A model generated the notes under the pieces. That model was not told where the DNA came from and made no database searches. It worked only from the letters and a program-made list of their open reading frames with translations. This document shows positions 5,670-19,925 of a stretch of DNA of 64,000 nt, in pieces. The DNA comes from Escherichia coli (lineage in GTDB: Bacteria > Pseudomonadota > Gammaproteobacteria > Enterobacterales > Enterobacteriaceae), in assembly GCF_003790525.1 (NCBI RefSeq), contig NZ_CP033636.1; one strand, 5' to 3'. A program made the translations under genes and the position numbers. Every line of letters starts with the position of its first letter. Position 1 is the stretch's first letter.

Positions 5670-6260
5670 ATGAAGATCTACGTCATCAAAATAGCAGTTC
5701 ATGGAGTCAGTCCGATGGTCTGGCGTCGGCTGAGAATTGCTGCCGACACGTCACTGGCCGCGCTTCACTTCATTTTCCAGATAGTGCAGGGCTGGGGGGA
5801 CGACCATCTCCATCAATTTCACATTTATGGCAAAGATTACGGTATCTCCTACGAAGGAGGCATCGGTTTTGTCGATAATCCGTTCCGGGTCGTGATTGAT
5901 GATTTTGCTTTTGATGCTGGCGATCGCTTTACCTATGAATACAATTTCTTTGAGCACTGGCTTCATGACATTCGTGTTGAGGCCATTTATGAAAACTCTA
6001 CGCTGAAAGCGCCGTTTTGTATAAGCGGCCATGGTATGCCCGGAGCCACAGCTGCGGATGAGTTCGATAAAACCCTGGCGTTTCTTGAAGCTATCGTTAA
6101 TGCGGATGATGAAACAACGGTCGGCGAGATCCGCCCTTTTGCTGACGACCTGGATGCTGTCAGGTTCAACCGCCACAAAATCAACCGGCAACTGAGCAGG
6201 CTCGACCTTGCATCTCCGGTACTGGAGCCTGAAGTTATCTGGCTGGGCCGTCGTCGCTGA
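5670..6260 (+). CDS. pRiA4b ORF-3-like family protein, often an IS passenger gene
   Basis: 196-aa translation resembles the plasmid pRiA4b ORF-3-like family; recall-based. Confidence 0.45.
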   Translation: MKIYVIKIAVHGVSPMVWRRLRIAADTSLAALHFIFQIVQGWGDDHLHQFHIYGKDYGISYEGGIGFVDNPFRVVIDDFAFDAGDRFTYEYNFFEHWLHDIRVEAIYENSTLKAPFCISGHGMPGATAADEFDKTLAFLEAIVNADDETTVGEIRPFADDLDAVRFNRHKINRQLSRLDLASPVLEPEVIWLGRRR

Positions 6261-6396
6261 CTGATGTCTATAAAGGTATACGTTTTCAGCATGCCTCTCA
6301 GATCCCCGAAAAAATGTCTATAAACCTCCCTAAATCAGTGTTTATGGATTATTCTTTAAATCTCTATGATGTTTAAAGACCTTCCGGAGGTTTTGC

Positions 6397-6969
6397 GTGC
6401 AATATGCCTACATCAGGGTAAGCTCGGCCGATCAGAATACGGCCCGTCAGGAAGAGGCATTGTCAAAGGCGGGTTTTCAGCCTGATAAAATTTGTGTTGA
6501 GCATGCCAGCGCGAAGGACACAAACCGCCCGGGGTTACAGGAACTCCTGGGGCAATTACGCCCTGGTGATACGCTTCTGGTTCATTCCATCGATCGCCTT
6601 TGCCGGAATATGTCGGATATGTGCGCTGTCACCACCCGGCTTCGTGACCAGGGCGTTACCCTTATTTTTCTGAAAGAGCAGCTGACGTTCAGCGCCGGCA
6701 CAAACAATCCGATGCAGGAACTGCAGCTGCACATGATGTCGGCATTCAGCCAGTTTGAACGAGCCTTACTGAAGGAAAGGCAGGCCGACGGCATCGCCGC
6801 GAAAAAAGCACGGGGTGAAAAAACAGGGCGCCCCGGCGCCGATATCAAAAAGATCCAGGAAATTGACGCACTCAGAAGCAGAGGGGTCAGGCTCAGGATC
6901 GCCTGCGACCATGCGGGCCTTGGCGTTTCCACATATTATAAGCTTCGTCACCAGATGAACAACCAGTAG
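6397..6969 (+). CDS. serine recombinase (resolvase/invertase family)
   Basis: N-terminal YIRVSS catalytic-serine motif and C-terminal HTH-like region. Confidence 0.7.
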   Translation: MQYAYIRVSSADQNTARQEEALSKAGFQPDKICVEHASAKDTNRPGLQELLGQLRPGDTLLVHSIDRLCRNMSDMCAVTTRLRDQGVTLIFLKEQLTFSAGTNNPMQELQLHMMSAFSQFERALLKERQADGIAAKKARGEKTGRPGADIKKIQEIDALRSRGVRLRIACDHAGLGVSTYYKLRHQMNNQ

Positions 6970-7002
6970 CCGGGAGATAGTCATCCACCACAGCAGGAGG
7001 CA

Positions 7003-8397
7003 ATGATGCAACTGACGCTCCAGATAGTCATCACCGATGAATCAGGCTCCAGTCGAACGGAGGAACTGATGACAATCCAGAAATCAGGGGAGACCCGGAA
7101 CGACATCGGATTATCGGTGTCAGAATCCAAGCTGTTGCTGAATACGGTCCAGCAGTCGGTGGTCCAGCTGCAGGCAGACGAATATACTCAACACCATATC
7201 CGGTGCCCTCACTGCCTTGCTGCGCGCAGAATCAAAGGCAAACAGAAAATACGGTACCGGACGCTGTTTGGCGTTATTCCGGTATCCGGGCTTCGGGTGT
7301 ACCGGTGCCGTTGTGAAGAGAGTGATACAAAGACAGTCAGTTTGCTCAGCGACTGGGCCGGCGATTATTCTCACCCGGCACTGAAATATATTGAAACCCG
7401 CTGGGCCTCGATGATCTCCTATGAAATGACGACTCGTCTGCTGAAAGATATTCTGCCGGTGGGCCACAGCCTGAATGCCTCAACGGTGAGGAATCATTTA
7501 TGCCAGGTGGCGCAGCGTCTTGACGCTGAGGCTGAAGCTCATTCAGGTTTTCTTTCCGGCTGCCCCCGCGACTGGGGGAACCTGCCCAGGCCAGGAAAAC
7601 CGCTTGTGGTGGGTATAGATGGTGGTTATGTTCGCGATCGGGATGACAAAAAGCGTAATTTTGAAATTATTGCCGGGAAGTCTTTTTCCGTTGGTGCGCC
7701 TGCTGACACCCGCCGCTTCGGTTTTGTTCAGAAGGATGACTGTCATCCGGAACGCAGGCTCATGACCCACCTTTCAGCGCAGGGAATGCAGGCCAACCAG
7801 CAGATATTTTTTCTGTCCGACGGCGCGGATAATCTCAGGGACCTCCAGTTCGGTATGTACCCTGAGTCAACGCATGTGCTGGACTGGTTTCATATCACCA
7901 TGAGGCTGAAGGTGCTCATGCAATATGCCCGGGGACTGCTGGTATCAGATCCAGAGGCGGGGAGTAAAGTTCTGGCACTGCTGGAAAGCATTAAACGATA
8001 TCTCTGGCATGGCAATGTTGTCGCTGCGCTGGAACATATTGATAATTGCGTTATGTATTGCGATGACCCTGAACTCAGCTATCCTAGCCTGAAATCCCTG
8101 CAAAAACATCTGGATGAAATGTATACCTACATCCGGAATAATAAGATGATGATCCCAAACTACGGCGAAATGCGTCGGTACGGAGAGCCGGTATCAACCG
8201 CGTTTGTGGAATCCACGATCAATGAAGTGATCGCCAGACGAATGGCCAAAAAGCAGCAGATGCAGTGGAGCAGAAAAGGGGCTCATTATTTGTTACAGAC
8301 CCGGACCGCCGTTTTGAATAACGAACTGCAGGATAAATTTGTCTGCTGGTATCCGGGTTTTCAAAGTGACGGGAAGGGACCAGCGATGGCAGCATAG
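7003..8397 (+). CDS. tnp: ISKra4-family transposase (ISKpn19-like), the usual neighbour of qnrS1
   Basis: 464-aa translation recalled as ISKpn19/ISKra4-family transposase; sits upstream of qnrS1. Confidence 0.65.
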   Translation: MMQLTLQIVITDESGSSRTEELMTIQKSGETRNDIGLSVSESKLLLNTVQQSVVQLQADEYTQHHIRCPHCLAARRIKGKQKIRYRTLFGVIPVSGLRVYRCRCEESDTKTVSLLSDWAGDYSHPALKYIETRWASMISYEMTTRLLKDILPVGHSLNASTVRNHLCQVAQRLDAEAEAHSGFLSGCPRDWGNLPRPGKPLVVGIDGGYVRDRDDKKRNFEIIAGKSFSVGAPADTRRFGFVQKDDCHPERRLMTHLSAQGMQANQQIFFLSDGADNLRDLQFGMYPESTHVLDWFHITMRLKVLMQYARGLLVSDPEAGSKVLALLESIKRYLWHGNVVAALEHIDNCVMYCDDPELSYPSLKSLQKHLDEMYTYIRNNKMMIPNYGEMRRYGEPVSTAFVESTINEVIARRMAKKQQMQWSRKGAHYLLQTRTAVLNNELQDKFVCWYPGFQSDGKGPAMAA

Positions 8398-8858: not shown

Positions 8859-9176
8859 TTTGAACGGACGGAAAAATCTGGGGTTCCGGCGTAGTACCCC
8901 TATCACCTCCACATTTTTGCAACAGTGCCTTATAAATGGCAGCCTTATGTTTACTTGCCAAGATGGGCTACCATATGATGTTTTATACTGAGCAATATTA
9001 ATATTATCTTTAATGGAAAAATTAAGCCCACTAAGTGACCCACTGCTATATGGCTCTATTGTGAAGACGCCTGAGGGTAAAAATTTATACATGGTTGTCC
9101 CTATGTCTATTATTGCAAGGTTGACAATATTATTCGTTTTATAAATTTGAGCGTTTAAAATCACACATCAAAGCAA

Positions 9177-9833
9177 TTAGTCAGGATAAACAACAATACC
9201 CAGTGCTTCGAGAATCAGTTCTTGCTGCCAGGCTGCAATTTTGATACCTGATGTATCGACTTTGCGGGGATCTAAACCGTCGAGTTCGGCGTGGCATAAA
9301 TTGGCACCCTGTAGGCTAAATTGCCCCCAGACATCTTCGGAAAAAACACCTCGACTTAAGTCTGACTCTTTCAGTGATGCACCCGCTAGGTTCGTTCCTA
9401 TCCAGCGATTTTCAAACAACTCACATTTTTCTAAACAAACCCTCTCCATATTGGCATAGGAAAGATTACATCCAGAAATAAATGCTGAGCAAAAGTACAT
9501 ACGATTACTCACTTGATGGGCAAAGTTTGTTCGGGAAAAGTTGGCACCTTTTAAATCACACGCACGGAACTCTATACCGTAGCAATTGGCATTACTGAAG
9601 TTTGCCATCGCAAGTTGGCATTGTTGGAAACTTGCATCACGAAGATCTGCGACATCAAAGTGGCAGCCTTCGATATCACCCTGTTCAATGAACTTGCAGT
9701 TGACGAATGTCGTATCACGCAAGTTAGCACGTCGAAAGTCGCTGCGAATGAATGTGCAAGCGGTGAAGGTGAGATCACTTAAGTCTTTATGTGAAAAGTT
9801 GTGGTGCCGATATGTATGATTGTAGGTTTCCAT
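9177..9833 (-). CDS. qnrS1: pentapeptide-repeat quinolone-resistance protein QnrS1
   Basis: 218-aa translation (METYNHTYRHHNFSHKDLSDLTFTACTF...ALGIVVYPD) matches QnrS1 from recall; tandem pentapeptide repeats visible. Confidence 0.9.
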   Translation of the reverse strand: METYNHTYRHHNFSHKDLSDLTFTACTFIRSDFRRANLRDTTFVNCKFIEQGDIEGCHFDVADLRDASFQQCQLAMANFSNANCYGIEFRACDLKGANFSRTNFAHQVSNRMYFCSAFISGCNLSYANMERVCLEKCELFENRWIGTNLAGASLKESDLSRGVFSEDVWGQFSLQGANLCHAELDGLDPRKVDTSGIKIAAWQQELILEALGIVVYPD

Positions 9834-10136
9834 GAGTACTCCTTGTTGAAAGGAGGGCTAGACTACCATTATACATATGCCAAGACATTAAAATAAAAGC
9901 CTGTTACATCAACACATTACAACCCCTCAATTTACCTGTTTTAAGTGGTCAAATTGGCGCGTAGAGCGCCTATCGCTCTTGCATTGGCACGCGGCCCTGT
10001 TGAAAAAAGTTATTCGCTTTAGATAGGGTTAGGAGAGCCGTGCTTCGCCGGTAAAAAATCGGACTATCCGACGCAGGGCGGACTCATCGGCGGAGAAGCA
10101 AACTTTGACTATATCTCCCTACACTTGGAAGAGGGC

Positions 10137-10847
10137 TAGACTGGCCCCATAGATCACCAGACACTTCGACTCTCTTAAAATAAGAGGTAGTCTTGGAACT
10201 ATGTTTAATACCAGTCAGAACGATAAGATGGTTGAAGTGTTATCAGGACCTGAGCGGCGTCGGCGTCGTACACCGCAGGAAAAAATTGCCATTATTCAGC
10301 AGACTATGGAGCCCGGTATGACCGTGTCTCATGTCGCGCGCCTGCATGGCATCAATGCAAACCAGATATTCAAATGGCGCAAGCAATATTAAGACGGTTC
10401 ACTGACGGCTGTTGCATCGGGCGAGGAAGTGGTGCCGGCCTCCGAACTCGCTGCCGCCAATAAGCAAATTCGCGAACTCCAGCGCCTTCTGGGCAAAAAG
10501 ACGATGGAAGCCGAGATACTCAAAGAGGCCGTGGAGTTCGGCCGGGCAAAAAAATGGATTGCGCATGCGCCCTCGTTGCCTGGGAACGACGAATAAGCGA
10601 CGTTTGCAGAAGTCTTAGCGTGTCGCGTGCGCAGTTGAGCATTCGGGTTCACCGGCCATCTGACTGACAGGATCGCAGACGGCAGCCCCGTTCTGACGAT
10701 ACCACCGTATTGTCCCGGATAAACATGGCGGTGGCTGACCTGCCGACGTATGGTTATCGCCGTGTGTGGGCGCTGCTGCGACGGGAGTCGGAGCGGGACG
10801 GCCTGCCTGTGGTTAATGCAAAGCGGGTGTATCGCATTATGAGAACG
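10137..10847 (+). mobile_element. IS3-family (IS2-like) remnant: orfA with an in-frame nonsense codon, orfB cut by IS26
   Basis: Left end TAGACTGGCCCC resembles IS2 IRL; the orfA frame 10201-10596 carries TAA at 10390-10392 where IS2 InsC continues QEGSL; sequence stops at IS26 (10848). Confidence 0.6.
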
Positions 10848-11667
10848 GGCACTGTTGCAAATAGTCGGTGGTGATAAACTTATCATCCCCTTTTGCTGAT
10901 GGAGCTGCACATGAACCCATTCAAAGGCCGGCATTTTCAGCGTGACATCATTCTGTGGGCCGTACGCTGGTACTGCAAATACGGCATCAGTTACCGTGAG
11001 CTGCAGGAGATGCTGGCTGAACGCGGAGTGAATGTCGATCACTCCACGATTTACCGCTGGGTTCAGCGTTATGCGCCTGAAATGGAAAAACGGCTGCGCT
11101 GGTACTGGCGTAACCCTTCCGATCTTTGCCCGTGGCACATGGATGAAACCTACGTGAAGGTCAATGGCCGCTGGGCGTATCTGTACCGGGCCGTCGACAG
11201 CCGGGGCCGCACTGTCGATTTTTATCTCTCCTCCCGTCGTAACAGCAAAGCTGCATACCGGTTTCTGGGTAAAATCCTCAACAACGTGAAGAAGTGGCAG
11301 ATCCCGCGATTCATCAACACGGATAAAGCGCCCGCCTATGGTCGCGCGCTTGCTCTGCTCAAACGCGAAGGCCGGTGCCCGTCTGACGTTGAACACCGAC
11401 AGATTAAGTACCGGAACAACATGATTGAATGCGATCATGGCAAACTGAAACGGATAATCGGCGCCACGCTGGGATTTAAATCCATGAAGACGGCTTACGC
11501 CACCATCAAAGGTATTGAGGTGATGCGTGCACTACGCAAAGGCCAGGCCTCAGCATTTTATTATGGTGATCCCCTGGGCGAAATGCGCCTGGTAAGCAGA
11601 GTTTTTGAAATGTAAGGCCTTTGAATAAGACAAAAGGCTGCCTCATCGCTAACTTTGCAACAGTGCC
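10848..11667 (+). mobile_element. IS26 copy 1 (820 bp, 14-bp terminal IRs GGCACTGTTGCAAA)
   Basis: Both IRs read directly at 10848-10861 and 11654-11667; length exactly 820 bp; no flanking 8-bp direct repeat. Confidence 0.95.
10911..11615 (+). CDS. tnp26: IS26 transposase Tnp26 (234 aa), carries V171M relative to copies 2 and 3
   Basis: Translation [21 protein letters not shown]...; codon AAC ATG ATT gives N-M-I where the other copies have N-V-I. Confidence 0.95.
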
Positions 11668-12673
11668 CACTAGTGAGGGGCGGCAGCGCATCAAGCGGTG
11701 AGCGCACTCCGGCACCGCCAACTTTCAGCACATGCGTGTAAATCATCGTCGTAGAGACGTCGGAATGGCCGAGCAGATCCTGCACGGTTCGAATGTCGTA
11801 ACCGCTGCGGAGCAAGGCCGTCGCGAACGAGTGGCGGAGGGTGTGCGGTGTGGCGGGCTTCGTGATGCCTGCTTGTTCTACGGCACGTTTGAAGGCGCGC
11901 TGAAAGGTCTGGTCATACATGTGATGGCGACGCACGACACCGCTCCGTGGATCGGTCGAATGCGTGTGCTGCGCAAAAACCCAGAACCACGGCCAGGAAT
12001 GCCCGGCGCGCGGATACTTCCGCTCAAGGGCGTCGGGAAGCGCAACGCCGCTGCGGCCCTCGGCCTGGTCCTTCAGCCACCATGCCCGTGCACGCGACAG
12101 CTGCTCGCGCAGGCTGGGTGCCAAGCTCTCGGGTAACATCAAGGCCCGATCCTTGGAGCCCTTGCCCTCCCGCACGATGATCGTGCCGTGATCGAAATCC
12201 AGATCCTTGACCCGCAGTTGCAAACCCTCACTGATCCGCATGCCCGTTCCATACAGAAGCTGGGCGAACAAACGATGCTCGCCTTCCAGAAAACCGAGGA
12301 TGCGAACCACTTCATCCGGGGTCAGCACCACCGGCAAGCGCCGCGACGGCCGAGGTCTTCCGATCTCCTGAAGCCAGGGCAGATCCGTGCACAGCACCTT
12401 GCCGTAGAAGAACAGCAAGGCCGCCAATGCCTGACGATGCGTGGAGACCGAAACCTTGCGCTCGTTCGCCAGCCAGGACAGAAATGCCTCGACTTCGCTG
12501 CTGCCCAAGGTTGCCGGGTGACGCACACCGTGGAAACGGATGAAGGCACGAACCCAGTGGACATAAGCCTGTTCGGTTCGTAAGCTGTAATGCAAGTAGC
12601 GTATGCGCTCACGCAACTGGTCCAGAACCTTGACCGAACGCAGCGGTGGTAACGGCGCAGTGGCGGTTTTCAT
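11668..12673 (-). pseudogene. intI1: class 1 integron integrase IntI1, 3' end disrupted by IS26 (nearly full length)
   Basis: Translation [20 protein letters not shown]... matches IntI1; about 335 native codons, then the reading frame runs into IS26. Confidence 0.9.
12558..12586 (+). promoter_or_regulatory. integron cassette promoter Pc, weak variant (TGGACA-N17-TAAGCT)
   Basis: Hexamers and 17-bp spacer read directly inside the intI1 coding region, oriented toward the cassettes. Confidence 0.75.
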
Positions 12674-12747
12674 GGCTTGTTATGACTGTTTTTTTGTACA
12701 GTCTATGCCTCGGGCATCCAAGCAGCAAGCGCGTTACGCCGTGGGTC

Positions 12748-12812
12748 GATGTTTGATGTTATGGAGCAGCAACGATGTTACGCAGCAGGGCAGTCGCCCT
12801 AAAACAAAGTTA
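12748..12812 (+). other. attI1 recombination site of the class 1 integron
   Basis: 5'-conserved-segment sequence GTTACGCAGCAGGGCAGTCGCCCTAAAACAAAGTTA read directly, ending at the first cassette junction. Confidence 0.75.
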
Positions 12813-12845
12813 TGCAGCCAAATCCCAACAATTAAGGGTCTTAAA

Positions 12846-13298
12846 ATGGTAAAAGATTGGATTCCCATCTCTCATGATAATTACAAGCAGGTGCAAGGAC
12901 CGTTCTATCATGGAACCAAAGCCAATTTGGCGATTGGTGACTTGCTAACCACAGGGTTCATCTCTCATTTCGAGGACGGTCGTATTCTTAAGCACATCTA
13001 CTTTTCAGCCTTGATGGAGCCAGCAGTTTGGGGAGCTGAACTTGCTATGTCACTGTCTGGCCTCGAGGGTCGCGGCTACATATACATAGTTGAGCCAACA
13101 GGACCGTTCGAAGACGATCCGAATCTTACGAACAAAAAATTTCCCGGTAATCCAACACAGTCCTATAGAACCTGCGAACCCTTGAGAATTGTTGGCGTTG
13201 TTGAAGACTGGGAGGGGCATCCTGTTGAATTAATAAGGGGAATGTTGGATTCGTTAGAGGACTTAAAGCGCCGTGGTTTACACGTCATTGAAGACTAG
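12846..13298 (+). CDS. arr-2: rifampin ADP-ribosyltransferase Arr (arr-2/arr-3 type; allele not resolved)
   Basis: 150-aa translation MVKDWIPISHDNYKQVQGPFYHGTK... matches Arr-2/3 from recall; first cassette after attI1. Confidence 0.85.
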   Translation: MVKDWIPISHDNYKQVQGPFYHGTKANLAIGDLLTTGFISHFEDGRILKHIYFSALMEPAVWGAELAMSLSGLEGRGYIYIVEPTGPFEDDPNLTNKKFPGNPTQSYRTCEPLRIVGVVEDWEGHPVELIRGMLDSLEDLKRRGLHVIED

Positions 13299-13490
13299 TC
13301 CTTTGCATAACAAAGCCATCAAACCGGACGCCAGAGATTCCGCGCCTGTTGCGCATGGCTTCGCCATTTTATGCGCAATAGGCGCGCCACCCTGTCGCCG
13401 TTTATGGCGGCGTTGGGCGCACAATAAGGCTCCTCGCAGAGTTGCTTGAAAGTTGTTACGATTCAAATTCAATCATGAGATAGTCAGCAG

Positions 13491-13560
13491 ATGAGCACTT
13501 CCAAGAACGCAGACAAGTAAGCCGCAGCAACCTTCATTTTTCGGTTGTTGCGGCGTTCTC
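13491..13560 (+). promoter_or_regulatory. cmlA translational-attenuation leader (9-aa leader peptide MSTSKNADK plus stem-loop)
   Basis: Leader ORF atgagcacttccaagaacgcagacaagtaa followed by inverted repeat GCCGCAGCAACC...GGTTGTTGCGGC, read directly; consistent with known inducible cmlA regulation. Confidence 0.7.
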
Positions 13561-13618
13561 ATGAATCCTTTTGCTCTACGGGAGCGCCGCCAAATCCTTT
13601 GTTCAAGGAGATGGTTTC

Positions 13619-14878
13619 GTGCGCTCAAAAAACTTTAGTTGGCGGTACTCCCTTGCCGCCACGGTGTTGTTGTTATCACCGTTCGATTTATTGGCATCAC
13701 TCGGCATGGACATGTACTTGCCAGCAGTGCCGTTTATGCCAAACGCGCTTGGTACGACAGCGAGCACAATTCAGCTTACGCTGACAACGTACTTGGTCAT
13801 GATTGGTGCCGGTCAGCTCTTGTTTGGACCGCTATCGGACCGACTGGGGCGCCGCCCCGTTCTACTGGGAGGTGGCCTCGCCTACGTTGTGGCGTCAATG
13901 GGCCTCGCTCTTACGTCATCGGCTGAAGTCTTTCTGGGGCTTCGGATTCTTCAGGCTTGTGGTGCCTCGGCGTGCCTTGTTTCCACATTTGCAACAGTAC
14001 GTGACATTTACGCAGGTCGCGAGGAAAGTAATGTCATTTACGGCATACTCGGATCCATGCTGGCCATGGTCCCGGCGGTAGGCCCATTGCTCGGAGCGCT
14101 CGTCGACATGTGGCTTGGGTGGCGGGCTATCTTTGCGTTTCTAGGTTTGGGCATGATCGCTGCATCTGCAGCAGCGTGGCGATTCTGGCCTGAAACCCGG
14201 GTGCAACGAGTTGCGGGCTTGCAATGGTCGCAGCTGCTACTCCCCGTTAAGTGCCTGAACTTCTGGTTGTACACGTTGTGTTACGCCGCTGGAATGGGTA
14301 GCTTCTTCGTCTTTTTCTCCATTGCGCCCGGACTAATGATGGGCAGGCAAGGTGTGTCTCAGCTTGGCTTCAGCCTGCTGTTCGCCACAGTGGCAATTGC
14401 CATGGTGTTTACGGCTCGTTTTATGGGGCGTGTGATACCCAAGTGGGGCAGCCCAAGTGTCTTGCGAATGGGAATGGGATGCCTGATAGCTGGAGCAGTA
14501 TTGCTTGCCATCACCGAAATATGGGCTTCGCAGTCCGTGTTAGGCTTTATTGCTCCAATGTGGCTAGTGGGTATTGGTGTCGCCACAGCGGTATCTGTGT
14601 CGCCCAATGGCGCTCTTCGAGGATTCGACCATGTTGCTGGAACGGTCACGGCAGTCTACTTCTGCTTGGGCGGTGTACTGCTAGGAAGCATCGGAACGTT
14701 GATCATTTCGCTGTTGCCGCGCAACACGGCTTGGCCGGTTGTCGTGTACTGTTTGACCCTTGCAACAGTCGTGCTCGGTCTGTCTTGTGTTTCCCGAGTG
14801 AAGGGCTCTCGCGGCCAGGGGGAGCATGATGTGGTCGCGCTACAAAGTGCGGAAAGTACATCAAATCCCAATCGTTGA
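13619..14878 (+). CDS. cmlA: chloramphenicol efflux MFS transporter CmlA (cmlA5-like)
   Basis: 419-aa translation from a GTG start (RSKNFSWRYSLAATVLLLSPFDLLASLGMDMYLP...) matches CmlA from recall. Confidence 0.88.
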   Translation: MRSKNFSWRYSLAATVLLLSPFDLLASLGMDMYLPAVPFMPNALGTTASTIQLTLTTYLVMIGAGQLLFGPLSDRLGRRPVLLGGGLAYVVASMGLALTSSAEVFLGLRILQACGASACLVSTFATVRDIYAGREESNVIYGILGSMLAMVPAVGPLLGALVDMWLGWRAIFAFLGLGMIAASAAAWRFWPETRVQRVAGLQWSQLLLPVKCLNFWLYTLCYAAGMGSFFVFFSIAPGLMMGRQGVSQLGFSLLFATVAIAMVFTARFMGRVIPKWGSPSVLRMGMGCLIAGAVLLAITEIWASQSVLGFIAPMWLVGIGVATAVSVSPNGALRGFDHVAGTVTAVYFCLGGVLLGSIGTLIISLLPRNTAWPVVVYCLTLATVVLGLSCVSRVKGSRGQGEHDVVALQSAESTSNPNR

Positions 14879-15142
14879 GAGAATGTGGCAAGCTATCGCC
14901 CAACAAATCGCTGCAGCCGACCCAAAACCGCTACGCGGTTTCGGTCGGCTGAGCTCAGGCGTTAGGCCTCGCCGAAGCGAAAGATCGCTACTTGAAGTGT
15001 TGACGCCTTTGTTTTAAAGTTTCGCGTCTATCTTTCTGATTTTGTTAAAAAATCAGACTTTGATTAATCATGTTAGACGTCAGAGGTATTTTGACTTAAA
15101 CGCCTCTGAGGTCGAATTAACGTTAGCCACCAAGAAGGTGCC

Positions 15143-15943
15143 ATGAAAACATTTGCCGCATATGTAATTATCGCGTGTCTTTCGAGTACGGCATTAGCTG
15201 GTTCAATTACAGAAAATACGTCTTGGAACAAAGAGTTCTCTGCCGAAGCCGTCAATGGTGTCTTCGTGCTTTGTAAAAGTAGCAGTAAATCCTGCGCTAC
15301 CAATGACTTAGCTCGTGCATCAAAGGAATATCTTCCAGCATCAACATTTAAGATCCCCAACGCAATTATCGGCCTAGAAACTGGTGTCATAAAGAATGAG
15401 CATCAGGTTTTCAAATGGGACGGAAAGCCAAGAGCCATGAAGCAATGGGAAAGAGACTTGACCTTAAGAGGGGCAATACAAGTTTCAGCTGTTCCCGTAT
15501 TTCAACAAATCGCCAGAGAAGTTGGCGAAGTAAGAATGCAGAAATACCTTAAAAAATTTTCCTATGGCAACCAGAATATCAGTGGTGGCATTGACAAATT
15601 CTGGTTGGAAGGCCAGCTTAGAATTTCCGCAGTTAATCAAGTGGAGTTTCTAGAGTCTCTATATTTAAATAAATTGTCAGCATCTAAAGAAAACCAGCTA
15701 ATAGTAAAAGAGGCTTTGGTAACGGAGGCGGCACCTGAATATCTAGTGCATTCAAAAACTGGTTTTTCTGGTGTGGGAACTGAGTCAAATCCTGGTGTCG
15801 CATGGTGGGTTGGGTGGGTTGAGAAGGAGACAGAGGTTTACTTTTTCGCCTTTAACATGGATATAGACAACGAAAGTAAGTTGCCGCTAAGAAAATCCAT
15901 TCCCACCAAAATCATGGAAAGTGAGGGCATCATTGGTGGCTAA
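15143..15943 (+). CDS. blaOXA-10: class D beta-lactamase, OXA-10 family
   Basis: 266-aa translation [32 protein letters not shown]... matches OXA-10 from recall; STFK and KTG motifs present. Confidence 0.9.
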
Positions 15944-15959
15944 AACAAAGTTAAACATC

Positions 15960-16751
15960 ATGAGGGAAGTGGTGATCGCCGAAGTATCGACTCAACTATC
16001 AGAGGTAGTTGGCGTCATCGAGCGCCATCTCGAACCGACGTTGCTGGCCGTACATTTGTACGGCTCCGCAGTGGATGGCGGCCTGAAGCCACACAGTGAT
16101 ATTGATTTGCTGGTTACGGTGACCGTAAGGCTTGATGAAACAACGCGGCGAGCTTTGATCAACGACCTTTTGGAAACTTCGGCTTCCCCTGGAGAGAGCG
16201 AGATTCTCCGCGCTGTAGAAGTCACCATTGTTGTGCACGACGACATCATTCCGTGGCGTTATCCAGCTAAGCGCGAACTGCAATTTGGAGAATGGCAGCG
16301 CAATGACATTCTTGCAGGTATCTTCGAGCCAGCCACGATCGACATTGATCTGGCTATCTTGCTGACAAAAGCAAGAGAACATAGCGTTGCCTTGGTAGGT
16401 CCAGCGGCGGAGGAACTCTTTGATCCGGTTCCTGAACAGGATCTATTTGAGGCGCTAAATGAAACCTTAACGCTATGGAACTCGCCGCCCGACTGGGCTG
16501 GCGATGAGCGAAATGTAGTGCTTACGTTGTCCCGCATTTGGTACAGCGCAGTAACCGGCAAAATCGCGCCGAAGGATGTCGCTGCCGACTGGGCAATGGA
16601 GCGCCTGCCGGCCCAGTATCAGCCCGTCATACTTGAAGCTAGACAGGCTTATCTTGGACAAGAAGAAGATCGCTTGGCCTCGCGCGCAGATCAGTTGGAA
16701 GAATTTGTTCACTACGTGAAAGGCGAGATCACCAAGGTAGTCGGCAAATAA
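15960..16751 (+). CDS. aadA1: aminoglycoside 3''-adenylyltransferase AadA1
   Basis: 263-aa translation MREVVIAEVSTQLSEVVGVIERHLEPTLLAVHLYGSAVDGGLKPHSDIDLLV... matches AadA1; start 17 nt after the blaOXA-10 stop. Confidence 0.9.
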   Translation: MREVVIAEVSTQLSEVVGVIERHLEPTLLAVHLYGSAVDGGLKPHSDIDLLVTVTVRLDETTRRALINDLLETSASPGESEILRAVEVTIVVHDDIIPWRYPAKRELQFGEWQRNDILAGIFEPATIDIDLAILLTKAREHSVALVGPAAEELFDPVPEQDLFEALNETLTLWNSPPDWAGDERNVVLTLSRIWYSAVTGKIAPKDVAADWAMERLPAQYQPVILEARQAYLGQEEDRLASRADQLEEFVHYVKGEITKVVGK

Positions 16752-16752
16752 T

Positions 16753-16813
16753 GTCTAACAATTCGTTCAAGCCGACGCCGCTTCGCGGCGCGGCTTAACT
16801 CAAGCGTTAACCC
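16753..16813 (+). other. attC (59-be) of the aadA1 cassette
   Basis: GTCTAACAATTCGTTCAAGCCGACGCCGCTTCGCGGCGCGGCTTAACTCAAGCGTTA read directly and recognised as the aadA1 attC. Confidence 0.75.
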
Positions 16814-16816
16814 AGG

Positions 16817-17299
16817 ATGAGAACCTTGAAAGTATCATTGATGGCTGCGAAAGCGAAAAACGGCGTGATTGGTTGCGGTCCAGACATACCCTGGTCCGCG
16901 AAAGGGGAGCAGCTACTTTTTAAAGCATTGACCTACAATCAGTGGCTTCTGGTGGGTCGCAAGACGTTTGAATCTATGGGCGCACTCCCCAATAGGAAAT
17001 ACGCGGTCGTTACCCGCTCAGGTTGGACATCAAATGATGACAATGTAGTTGTATTTCAGTCAATCGAAGAGGCCATGGACAGGCTAGCTGAATTCACCGG
17101 TCACGTTATAGTGTCTGGTGGCGGAGAAATTTACCGAGAAACATTACCCATGGCCTCTACGCTCCACTTATCGACGATCGACATCGAGCCAGAGGGGGAT
17201 GTTTTCTTCCCGAGTATTCCAAATACCTTCGAAGTTGTTTTTGAGCAACACTTTACTTCAAACATTAACTATTGCTATCAAATTTGGAAAAAGGGTTAA
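16817..17299 (+). CDS. dfrA14: trimethoprim-resistant dihydrofolate reductase, DfrA14-like
   Basis: 160-aa translation [68 protein letters not shown]...; dfrA1/5/14 family, allele uncertain. Confidence 0.75.
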
Positions 17300-17482
17300 C
17301 AAAGCTATGCAATCGACGGCAAAAAGCTTCGTTCGCTTCGCGCACTACGCCTTTTCCGCGATTGATAGCGACGTTATGTGAATATTGAAATGAGCATTCC
17401 AAAGAAAGGAAGTAGAAAAATTATCGTGGGCGAAAATGAGTTTTTGTGGCTCATTAGGTCAAAACTCACATATTCGCAGGAC

Positions 17483-18721
<1,239 letters not shown>

Positions 18722-18830
18722 CTGTCAGACCAAGTTTACTCATATATACTTTAGATTGATTTAAAACTTCATTTTTAATTTAAAAGGATCTAGGTGAAGA
18801 TCCTTTTTGATAATCTCATGACCAAAATCC

Positions 18831-18868
18831 CTTAACGTGAGTTTTCGTTCCACTGAGCGTCAGACCCC
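18831..18868. repeat. 38-bp terminal inverted repeat of Tn3 (bla-proximal end)
   Basis: CTTAACGTGAGTTTTCGTTCCACTGAGCGTCAGACCCC read directly; reverse complement of the Tn3 IR. Confidence 0.85.
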
Positions 18869-19740
18869 ATATCGGGCGGATCGTGGCCGGCATCACCGGG
18901 GCGACTGGGGCGGTAGCCGGCGCTTATATTGCCGATATCACTGATGGCGATGAGCGCGCGCGGCACTTCGGCTTCATGAGCGCCTGTTTCGGGTTCGGGA
19001 TGGTCGCGGGACCTGTGCTCGGTGGGCTGATGGGCGGTTTCTCCCCCCACGCTCCGTTCTTCGCCGCGGCAGCCTTGAACGGCCTCAATTTCCTGACGGG
19101 CTGTTTCCTTTTGCCGGAGTCGCACAAAGGCGAACGCCGGCCGTTACGCCGGGAGGCTCTCAACCCGCTCGCTTCGTTCCGGTGGGCCCGGGGCATGACC
19201 GTCGTCGCCGCCCTGATGGCGGTCTTCTTCATCATGCAACTTGTCGGACAGGTGCCGGCCGCGCTTTGGGTCATTTTCGGCGAGGATCGCTTTCACTGGG
19301 ACGCGACCACGATCGGCATTTCGCTTGCCGCATTTGGCATTCTGCATTCACTCGCCCAGGCAATGATCACCGGCCCTGTAGCCGCCCGGCTCGGCGAAAG
19401 GCGGGCACTCATGCTCGGAATGATTGCCGACGGCACAGGCTACATCCTGCTTGCCTTCGCGACACGGGGATGGATGGCGTTCCCGATCATGGTCCTGCTT
19501 GCTTCGGGTGGCATCGGAATGCCGGCGCTGCAAGCAATGTTGTCCAGGCAGGTGGATGAGGAACGTCAGGGGCAGCTGCAAGGCTCACTGGCGGCGCTCA
19601 CCAGCCTGACCTCGATCGTCGGACCCCTCCTCTTCACGGCGATCTATGCGGCTTCTATAACAACGTGGAACGGGTGGGCATGGATTGCAGGCGCTGCCCT
19701 CTACTTGCTCTGCCTGCCGGCGCTGCGTCGCGGGCTTTGG
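18869..19740 (+). pseudogene. tetA: second, 5'-truncated copy of tetA(A); its 3' end is also replaced after codon ...RRGLW
   Basis: Translation matches the C-terminal ~280 aa of TetA(A); the DNA diverges from the complete copy after GGGCTTTGG at 19740. Confidence 0.85.
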
Positions 19741-19925
19741 AGAAATTCTTCAAATTCCCGTTGCACATAGCCCGGCAATTCCTTTCCCTGCTCTGCCATA
19801 AGCGCAGCGAATGCCGGGTAATACTCGTCAACGATCTGATAGAGAAGGGTTTGCTCGGGTCGGTGGCTCTGGTAACGACCAGTATCCCGATCCCGGCTGG
19901 CCGTCCTGGCCGCCACATGAGGCAT
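19741..19925 (-). pseudogene. IS91-family ISCR2-type transposase, N-terminal ~62 codons only
   Basis: Translation MPHVAARTASRDRDTGRYQSHRPEQTLLYQIVDEYYPAFAALMAEQGKELPGYVQREFEEFL recalled as the ISCR2 Tnp N-terminus; reading frame then enters the tetA fragment. Confidence 0.6.

Follow-up and report, generated by a model that had tools for sequence, protein, structure and literature searches.

Here we report that positions 10848-18302 of a stretch of Escherichia coli DNA (contig NZ_CP033636.1 of assembly GCF_003790525.1; the 64-kb window, 64,000 nucleotides in all) almost certainly represent a resistance module that is known and widely disseminated, the remnant of a class 1 integron between two directly oriented copies of IS26. 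The unit reads, in order, IS26, intI1 with 335 of its 337 codons, the cassette promoter variant PcW, the recombination site attI1, arr-2, cmlA5, blaOXA-10/aadA1, dfrA14, a 109-bp relic, and the second IS26. It possesses the attributes of a class 1 integron, namely intI1, an adjacent attI1, the promoter Pc within intI1 (as judged by its sequence), and attC-bearing cassettes. The arr-2 family confers resistance to rifampicin, that of cmlA5 to chloramphenicol, that of blaOXA-10 to beta-lactams, that of aadA1 to streptomycin/spectinomycin, and that of dfrA14 to trimethoprim.

Among the matches listed, at least 15 E. coli records contain the full unit (7457 bp) over its whole length at 100.0% identity, and at least 80% of it is covered in 67 of 5426 complete genomes. 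Its 5817-bp core is complete and 100.0% identical in at least 30 of the plasmid records listed, the hosts being Escherichia, Klebsiella, Salmonella, Shigella, and Yokenella; coverage of the core of at least 80% at one place was observed in 195 plasmid records. Several E. coli plasmids contain the first 25 kb of the window as a single piece at 100.0%. An artefact of assembly, or a resemblance due to chance, has negligible probability as an explanation of the structure. We found no point in support of such an explanation, and it is already refuted by the 100.0% matches over 7.5 kb and 25 kb, which come from many independent complete assemblies of different species and countries.

A unit of the composition IS26-int1-arr-2-cmlA5-blaOXA-10-ant(3'')-dfrA14-IS26, without a 3'-conserved segment (3'-CS), was described earlier in 84 near-identical sequences from 21 species (PMC10026359). 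This pKP167-261-type unit, which is found in many Enterobacterales plasmids, has the same gene order and flanking IS26 and likewise lacks the 3'-CS, and there is no substantive difference from the unit examined here; the V171M variant of the left IS26 found here occurs also in several matching records. Because identical copies sit in plasmids of many bacterial species, we consider the module ordinary. Its structure is already known, nothing contradicts the identification, and we regard it as a routine annotation result, that is, a published multidrug-resistance module spread by IS26 among plasmids of Enterobacterales and other Gram-negative bacteria. Its interest is thus epidemiological, not conceptual. 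For integron typing, three corrections matter: a 161-bp leader upstream of blaOXA-10, an attI1-derived junction downstream of it, and the probably inherited absence of the 3'-CS. The behavior of this junction is the only point that is new, and mildly so.

A previous sequence-only reading of this DNA had named the elements of the integron, all of which are present, and database comparison of gene order and allele families supports its interpretation in essence, with small corrections. The order arr/cmlA/blaOXA-10/aadA1/dfrA14 that it gave agrees with the annotations of matching records, which are in agreement for all genes of the unit, and with family hidden Markov models (HMMs), which scored above their cut-offs for all of the resistance genes (for example, 625 bits for OXA-10 with NF000386, and 597.6 bits against a cut-off of 587 for AadA1). 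A record that matches the 5817-bp core at 100.0% carries annotations for Arr-2, CmlA5, OXA-10, AadA1, and DfrA14, all at 100% identity. The cassette identities thus match those of the sequence-only reading, and the 64-kb window contains no 3'-CS that would have spoken against it. The last gene had been called dfrA14-like; it does belong to the dfrA14 family, and the qualifier is too weak: given the annotation of DfrA14 at 100% identity and the agreement of the HMM, it is the reference allele dfrA14 itself.

The attI1 site (12763-12829, plus strand) was recognized by the Rfam model RF02912, "attI site," with 77 bits against a gathering score of 56. Its crossover point lies between G12809 and T12810, and it contains an exact CCCTAAAACAAAGTT at 12797-12811. 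This model alone matched in an Rfam search of positions 10000-19000 of the window. RF02912 is described as "putative aminoglycoside riboswitch / attI site," and it matches here though the first cassette is arr-2, which is not an aminoglycoside resistance gene.

Cassette boundaries were determined by folding, from the break-points of BLAST matches, and by comparison with arrays that place the same cassettes next to other neighbors, the main comparator being the array aac(6')-IIa / cmlA8 / blaOXA-246 / arr-2 / dfrA27 / 3'-CS (L003). A script that searched for R''/R' pairs with at least 6/7 complementarity recovered the cmlA5 attC only; the other boundaries were mapped by array comparison because their R' cores are hybrids with the next cassette. 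All cassettes are on the plus strand. The arr-2 cassette (12810-13412, 603 bp) comprises the gene at 12846-13298 and an attC of 114 bp including the R' core (13305-13418), and its boundary was aligned against an array that has dfrA27 downstream of arr-2 and aac(6')-IIa upstream of cmlA8. In the cmlA5 cassette (13413-14961, 1549 bp), the gene extends from a GTG at 13619 to 14878, and the 70-bp attC (14898-14967) was found by both the R''/R' search and folding. The aadA1 cassette part (15951-16806, 856 bp) carries the gene at 15960-16751 and a 60-bp attC (16753-16812), and the dfrA14 cassette (16807-17373, 567 bp) carries a gene from TTG 16826 (or ATG 16817) to 17299 with an 86-bp attC (17294-17379). 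For all four attC sites, the bottom strand gave a more stable fold than did shuffled controls, z ranging from -3.1 to -3.7 (arr-2, -36.8 kcal/mol, z -3.4; cmlA5, z -3.65; aadA1, z -3.66; dfrA14, -19.9 kcal/mol, z -3.06).

Upstream of cmlA5, an open reading frame (ORF) for the 9-codon leader peptide MSTSKNADK can be read directly from the sequence at 13491-13520. It is followed by a 12-bp hairpin and then by a second hairpin, in which the ribosome-binding site AAGGAG and the GTG start are paired; the fold of this attenuator has a minimum free energy of -50.1 kcal/mol (z -2.8). The leader ORF and the hairpins bear out the previous statement that the attenuation leader of cmlA is retained, and from their sequence they would constitute the hallmarks of chloramphenicol-inducible translation attenuation.

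In a record with 100.0% identity over the full unit (L002, NZ_CP096588.1), the Prokaryotic Genome Annotation Pipeline (PGAP) calls aadA1 a "frameshifted" pseudogene of 839 nt, corresponding to window positions 15960-16798. The 263-codon ORF of aadA1 is intact and scored as 100% AadA1, and the call looks like an annotation artefact. As a consequence of it, aadA1 (and dfrA14) vanish from the coding sequence tables of PLSDB.

blaOXA-10 (gene at 15143-15943, plus strand; cassette body from 15123) has no attC of its own. The two complete genes blaOXA-10 and aadA1 share a single attC with none between them, and the normal blaOXA-10 attC, which is seen in L003 and in plasmid pUL3AT (L006), is missing here. 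From the blaOXA-10 stop codon (15941-15943) to the aadA1 ATG at 15960 there are 16 nt (15944-15959); the previously stated length of 17 nt needs to be corrected accordingly, and the conclusion that no attC lies between the genes stands. The junction is the hybrid sequence GGCTAAAACAAAGTT (15938-15952, plus strand), which is composed of the blaOXA-10 stop codon and the last bases of attI1, with the G/TT crossover point kept. It agrees with the final 15 nt of attI1 at 13 positions and is the sole other such match in the window. In other records, matches to aadA1 begin with the cassette itself or, in arrays headed by aadA1, 10 nt before it inside attI1, and it is on the basis of these start points that we interpret the junction as the blaOXA-10 stop codon joined to the attI1 end and the aadA1 cassette. 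The description of the two genes as one fused cassette is therefore correct insofar as they share one attC, but they are joined by a hybrid attI1-type site and not just by a short spacer. The junction point behind blaOXA-10 can be written GGCTAAAACAAAG/TT and is also given as GGTGGCTAAAACAAAG/TT. By inspection, it would be reproduced exactly by a crossover of G/TTAGCC with T/TTAGGG, which are the bottom-strand sequences of the R'' core in the blaOXA-10 attC and of the L box in attI1, respectively. Illegitimate recombination of attC with attI is listed among the sources of cassette fusions (PMC8876359).

According to the usual reading in the literature, blaOXA-10/aadA1 is a permanently fused cassette that arose by simple deletion of the blaOXA-10 attC, so that the two genes move only together, by means of the aadA1 attC. 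PMC8876359 describes the fusion as created by this deletion and calls such arrays permanent. We consider this a serious contender that falls somewhat short of probable. It is in keeping with the absent attC and the mere 16 nt from stop codon to ATG, and aadA1 directly follows blaOXA-10 in about 27 of 33 evenly sampled rows matching blaOXA-10 itself. It does not sit well with the 13/15 copy of the attI1 end, including the G/TT crossover point, nor with the other partners of the junction. In 10 plasmid records, pPALO532 (L011) among them, aacA4 comes after the identical left half of the junction, which in five Pseudomonas plasmids is joined directly to the 3'-CS (191/191). The synthetic blaOXA-10/3'-CS junction had been predicted from excision of aadA1 before it was searched for and found. 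Three right-hand partners of the left half are thus on record (aadA1, aacA4, and the 3'-CS). Variation upstream of the unit also speaks against a permanent fusion: the unit is found with the leader behind the cmlA5 attC, with the leader behind attI1, or with a short 20-nt 5' end behind the aac(6')-IIc attC. Exact-pattern scans for the blaOXA-10 junction gave 0 matches in genome_contigs and in metagenome_contigs.

Two explanations are left: crossovers still take place at the hybrid site, or one and the same illegitimate event has happened more than once. Since other plasmids join the same junction to aacA4 and to the 3'-CS, the fusion may still be a usable recombination site. We tentatively suggest, as a possibility that we rate rather below an even chance, that the fusion is no dead end: IntI1 would still use the hybrid attI1-type site GGCTAAAACAAAG/TT, and blaOXA-10 would carry a portable attI-like site behind which cassettes are exchanged. 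If the hybrid junction is indeed recombinogenic, the view that fused cassettes are permanent would require a slight revision.

Upstream of the blaOXA-10 cassette body there is a 161-bp leader with no recognizable attC (14962-15122, plus strand). Bounded by G/TTAGGC and G/TTAGCC, it fills the interval from the cmlA5 attC to the G/TTAGCC at which the blaOXA-10 cassette usually starts. The leader is present in 248 plasmid records and absent between cmlA8 and blaOXA-246 in L003. In pUL3AT, an IncQ2 plasmid with a class 3 integron, it is located directly after attI3 and before blaOXA-256 (positions 1646-1806, 99.4% identity). An R''/R' search and folding detected neither an R''/R' pair nor attC-like ends in the leader. 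Based on its absence in L003, its position at the head of blaOXA-256 in pUL3AT, and the lack of attC-like ends, we conclude that the segment travels as a 5' leader of blaOXA-10.

The 161-bp leader holds a perfect 9-bp hairpin and an 11-bp hairpin. We rejected it as an independent standard cassette without an ORF, given that it has no R''/L''...L'/R' structure. Its hairpins are flanked by 5'-GTTA...TAAC-3', the reverse of an attC, and at attI3 the leader again forms the 5' end of a cassette, that of blaOXA-256. In an IncP plasmid of Pseudomonas putida (L007, NZ_CP046873.1, approximately 6100-7340), the leader is interrupted at its position 58 by the IS30-like ISPpu17. The array of this plasmid is aac(6')-Ib-cr5 / qnrVC1 / aacA4 / blaOXA-10/aadA1 / dfrA14 / mobC / IRt / IS6100, with a complete intI1.

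At the left end of the integron, IS26 clips intI1 (11668-12673, minus strand) behind codon 335 of its 337. The clipping, which the sequence-only reading had placed at about this codon, is borne out by 335/335 identity to the 337-aa IntI1 followed by 35 codons of IS26, into which the ORF runs on to give a product of 370 aa (11561-12673). NCBIfam PRK15417 recognizes it with 797 bits against a cut-off of 435, and PGAP annotates the 370-aa product as IntI1 (WP_024166810.1) in records at 100.0%. The protein has all six catalytic residues (R146, K171, H277, R280, H303, and Y312) together with R32 and H39. The clipped IntI1 thus keeps its catalytic residues and the excision-proficient R32/H39 form, and it ends in a foreign 35-aa tail.

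At the right end, the array had been said to end at IS26, and the integron at position 17299. IS26 does bound this end, but integron-derived DNA continues to 17482 and comprises the dfrA14 attC and, between the dfrA14 cassette and IS26, a 109-bp relic of a dfrA14-mobC-IRt-IS6100 lineage (17374-17482, plus strand), in which IS26 cuts before mobC. The 109 bp are identical to L007 up to the IS26 junction, and L007 and a second member of the lineage (L008) go on into a MobC-like ORF, IRt, and IS6100. A truncated cassette of another kind was considered for these 109 bp and rejected, as they are the start of the mobC-IRt-IS6100 segment. Searches of the whole 64-kb window at up to 3 mismatches gave no match to the starts of the 3'-CS and sul1; the integron is hence not of the sul1-type clinical form, and the reported absence of qacEdelta1-sul1 is upheld. 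The intI1-dfrA14-mobC-IS6100 lineage, in which the 3'-CS is replaced, is known from more than 100 plasmids (bioRxiv 10.1101/2021.07.12.451971). L007 and L008 share with the unit examined here the PcW-bearing 5'-conserved segment, the dfrA14 cassette, and the 109 bp. They differ in that their intI1 is complete and mobC, IRt, and IS6100 are kept, whereas here the sequence is cut beyond the 109 bp and four extra genes stand upstream of dfrA14. Because the 109-bp relic belongs to this lineage, the absence of the 3'-CS is most simply explained as inherited, with IS26 only trimming the mobC side, and a qacEdelta1-sul1 end probably never adjoined dfrA14.

An IncX1 plasmid (CP090279, L004) contains an IS26-intI1-dfrA14-IS26 skeleton that has the same IS26 junctions, 370-aa intI1 ORF, dfrA14, and 109 bp, but lacks the 3997-bp block arr-2-cmlA5-blaOXA-10/aadA1. 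Between the two there are 4 differences in 3458 bp, one of them in the Pc -10 box, and the right IS26 of the skeleton differs at two adjacent bases. Since the IS26 junctions are shared, at least one cassette-level change either post-dates the clipping or was imported by homologous recombination. The shared junctions do not show that the clipped IntI1 itself made this change. The 370-aa product of the read-through from intI1 into IS26 may be active, in which case it may have been what inserted or removed the four-gene block in the IS26-bounded skeleton.

Alternatively, the integron could be a frozen fossil in which the tailed IntI1 is inactive and the array changes only through an intact IntI1 supplied in trans or through homologous recombination. 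This is nearly as likely to be true as not. The last two residues are replaced and 35 foreign ones are added in the C-terminal tail behind the catalytic tyrosine, the array shows a striking constancy, with 100.0% identity in many hosts, and hosts of such plasmids often harbor further class 1 integrons. Conversely, merely 2 of 337 native residues are lost and the catalytic residues and R32/H39 are intact, and the identical IS26 junctions around a one-cassette and a five-gene array imply either a change after clipping or an import by homologous recombination.

We propose that dfrA14 and the 109 bp derive from the intI1-dfrA14-mobC-IRt-IS6100 lineage, and that the block arr-2-cmlA5-blaOXA-10/aadA1 would be that of In53/Tn2000, the In53 array of which contains the run arr-2-cmlA5-blaOXA-10-aadA1 (PMC10656743). 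In53/Tn2000 from E. coli MG-1 resembles the unit examined here in this run, including the fused blaOXA-10/aadA1, and differs in the absence of dfrA14. The present array would then most simply be an In53-type block at the attI1 of a dfrA14 integron. In In53/Tn2000, intI1 is reportedly interrupted by IS26, and the IS26 copies are said to be in opposite orientation, with target-site duplications around the unit.

Pc (12558-12586, plus strand), identified by pattern extraction, consists of TGGACA (12558-12563), a spacer of 17 nt, and TAAGCT (12581-12586), with TCG before the -10 box and no TGN-10 motif. The weak Pc TGGACA-N17-TAAGCT of the sequence-only reading is consequently plain PcW as defined in PMC2791841, in which the Pc variants and their relative strengths are given. 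PcW is 25-fold weaker than PcS and is linked to IntI1 R32_H39, the variant of highest excision activity (PMC2791841). The second promoter, P2 (12677-12702, plus strand; TTGTTA, 14 nt, TACAGT), has one G only and no GGG insertion, and it is inactive because its spacer is 14 nt, instead of the 17 nt of an active P2 (PMC2791841). From these sequences, the array would be served by the weak PcW alone, P2 being inactive, with arr-2 in first position adjoining PcW and dfrA14, in last position, probably dependent on read-through. cmlA5 is reported to have a promoter of its own. blaOXA-10/aadA1 would be driven from a promoter reported upstream of blaOXA-10, since a passage of PMC8876359 citing Naas 2001 describes the two genes as transcribed from their own promoter there; the location of this promoter is probably in the 161-bp leader. 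In view of these other reported promoters, the weakness of Pc matters less than had been implied earlier.

The left IS26 copy (10848-11667, plus strand) has 14-bp terminal inverted repeats and a transposase gene at 10911-11615. The right copy is at 17483-18302 in the same orientation (plus strand), and both are recognized by the IS6-family HMM. In direct orientation, bounding a passenger segment, and 1 nt apart in sequence, the two copies have the arrangement of a pseudo-compound transposon. The single nucleotide difference gives the left transposase the substitution V171M, and the glutamate usually taken to be the catalytic E of the DDE motif comes two residues later. The variant protein is annotated as WP_086525284.1 in a record at 100.0% over the full unit. 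A search of the 64-kb window for the inverted repeats IRi and IRt at up to 3 mismatches yielded no match, and the unit does not have the ends of a Tn402-type element; IS26 has removed the end of intI1 next to which IRi would lie. Because IRi, IRt, tni genes, and the 3'-CS are absent, the unit would move solely via IS26, by formation of a cointegrate or translocatable unit, or via homologous recombination.

Several results weigh against this account of the history, movement, and expression of the unit. The dfrA14-only skeleton of CP090279 has PcH1 (TAAACT), not PcW; PcW with dfrA14 as the first cassette does exist in L008, in which intI1 is complete. A different cassette order, dfrA14-arr-2-cmlA5, is found in an IncC plasmid of Proteus mirabilis (L010). 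The latter has dfrA14, arr-2, and cmlA5 in common with the unit examined here, but there dfrA14 is first and intI1 is complete, whereas here dfrA14 is last. The stretch of L010 that was compared ends after cmlA5, and its full array is presumably dfrA14-arr-2-cmlA5-blaOXA-10-aadA1. As to the order of events, the block may have been inserted or lost, by IntI1 action or homologous recombination. The IS26-bounded unit lacks an 8-bp target-site duplication, a mark to be expected after only some of the routes of insertion; its outer flanks are TGAGAACG and CTTTTTTG, and there is therefore no direct sign of the route by which the unit reached its present position. Finally, a sigma-70 consensus scan returned no promoter in the 161-bp leader and missed Pc itself as well, which makes it too strict to be informative; because it detected neither, our statements on promoters are based on the literature.

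To the left of the unit, qnrS1 is located just upstream at 9177-9833 on the minus strand. Upstream of qnrS1, at 8916-8929, there is an isolated terminal inverted repeat of IS26, a match of 14 bp only with no IS26 body. A transposase fragment at 10201-10847 is cut by the left IS26 and is frameshifted and incomplete according to the annotation of the matching record. Immediately to the right of the second IS26, positions 18303-19770 contain parts of two genes, blaTEM (a 3' fragment) and a tet-type gene of the major facilitator superfamily (a fragment), beyond which an IS91-family fragment and floR follow, as annotated in the matching plasmid pEC6622-1. The region on this side is a typical IS26-built mosaic. 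An 819-bp element at 23548-24366 has 14-bp ends as in IS26 and gave no megablast alignment to IS26; it corresponds to IS1006 as annotated in the matching plasmid record.

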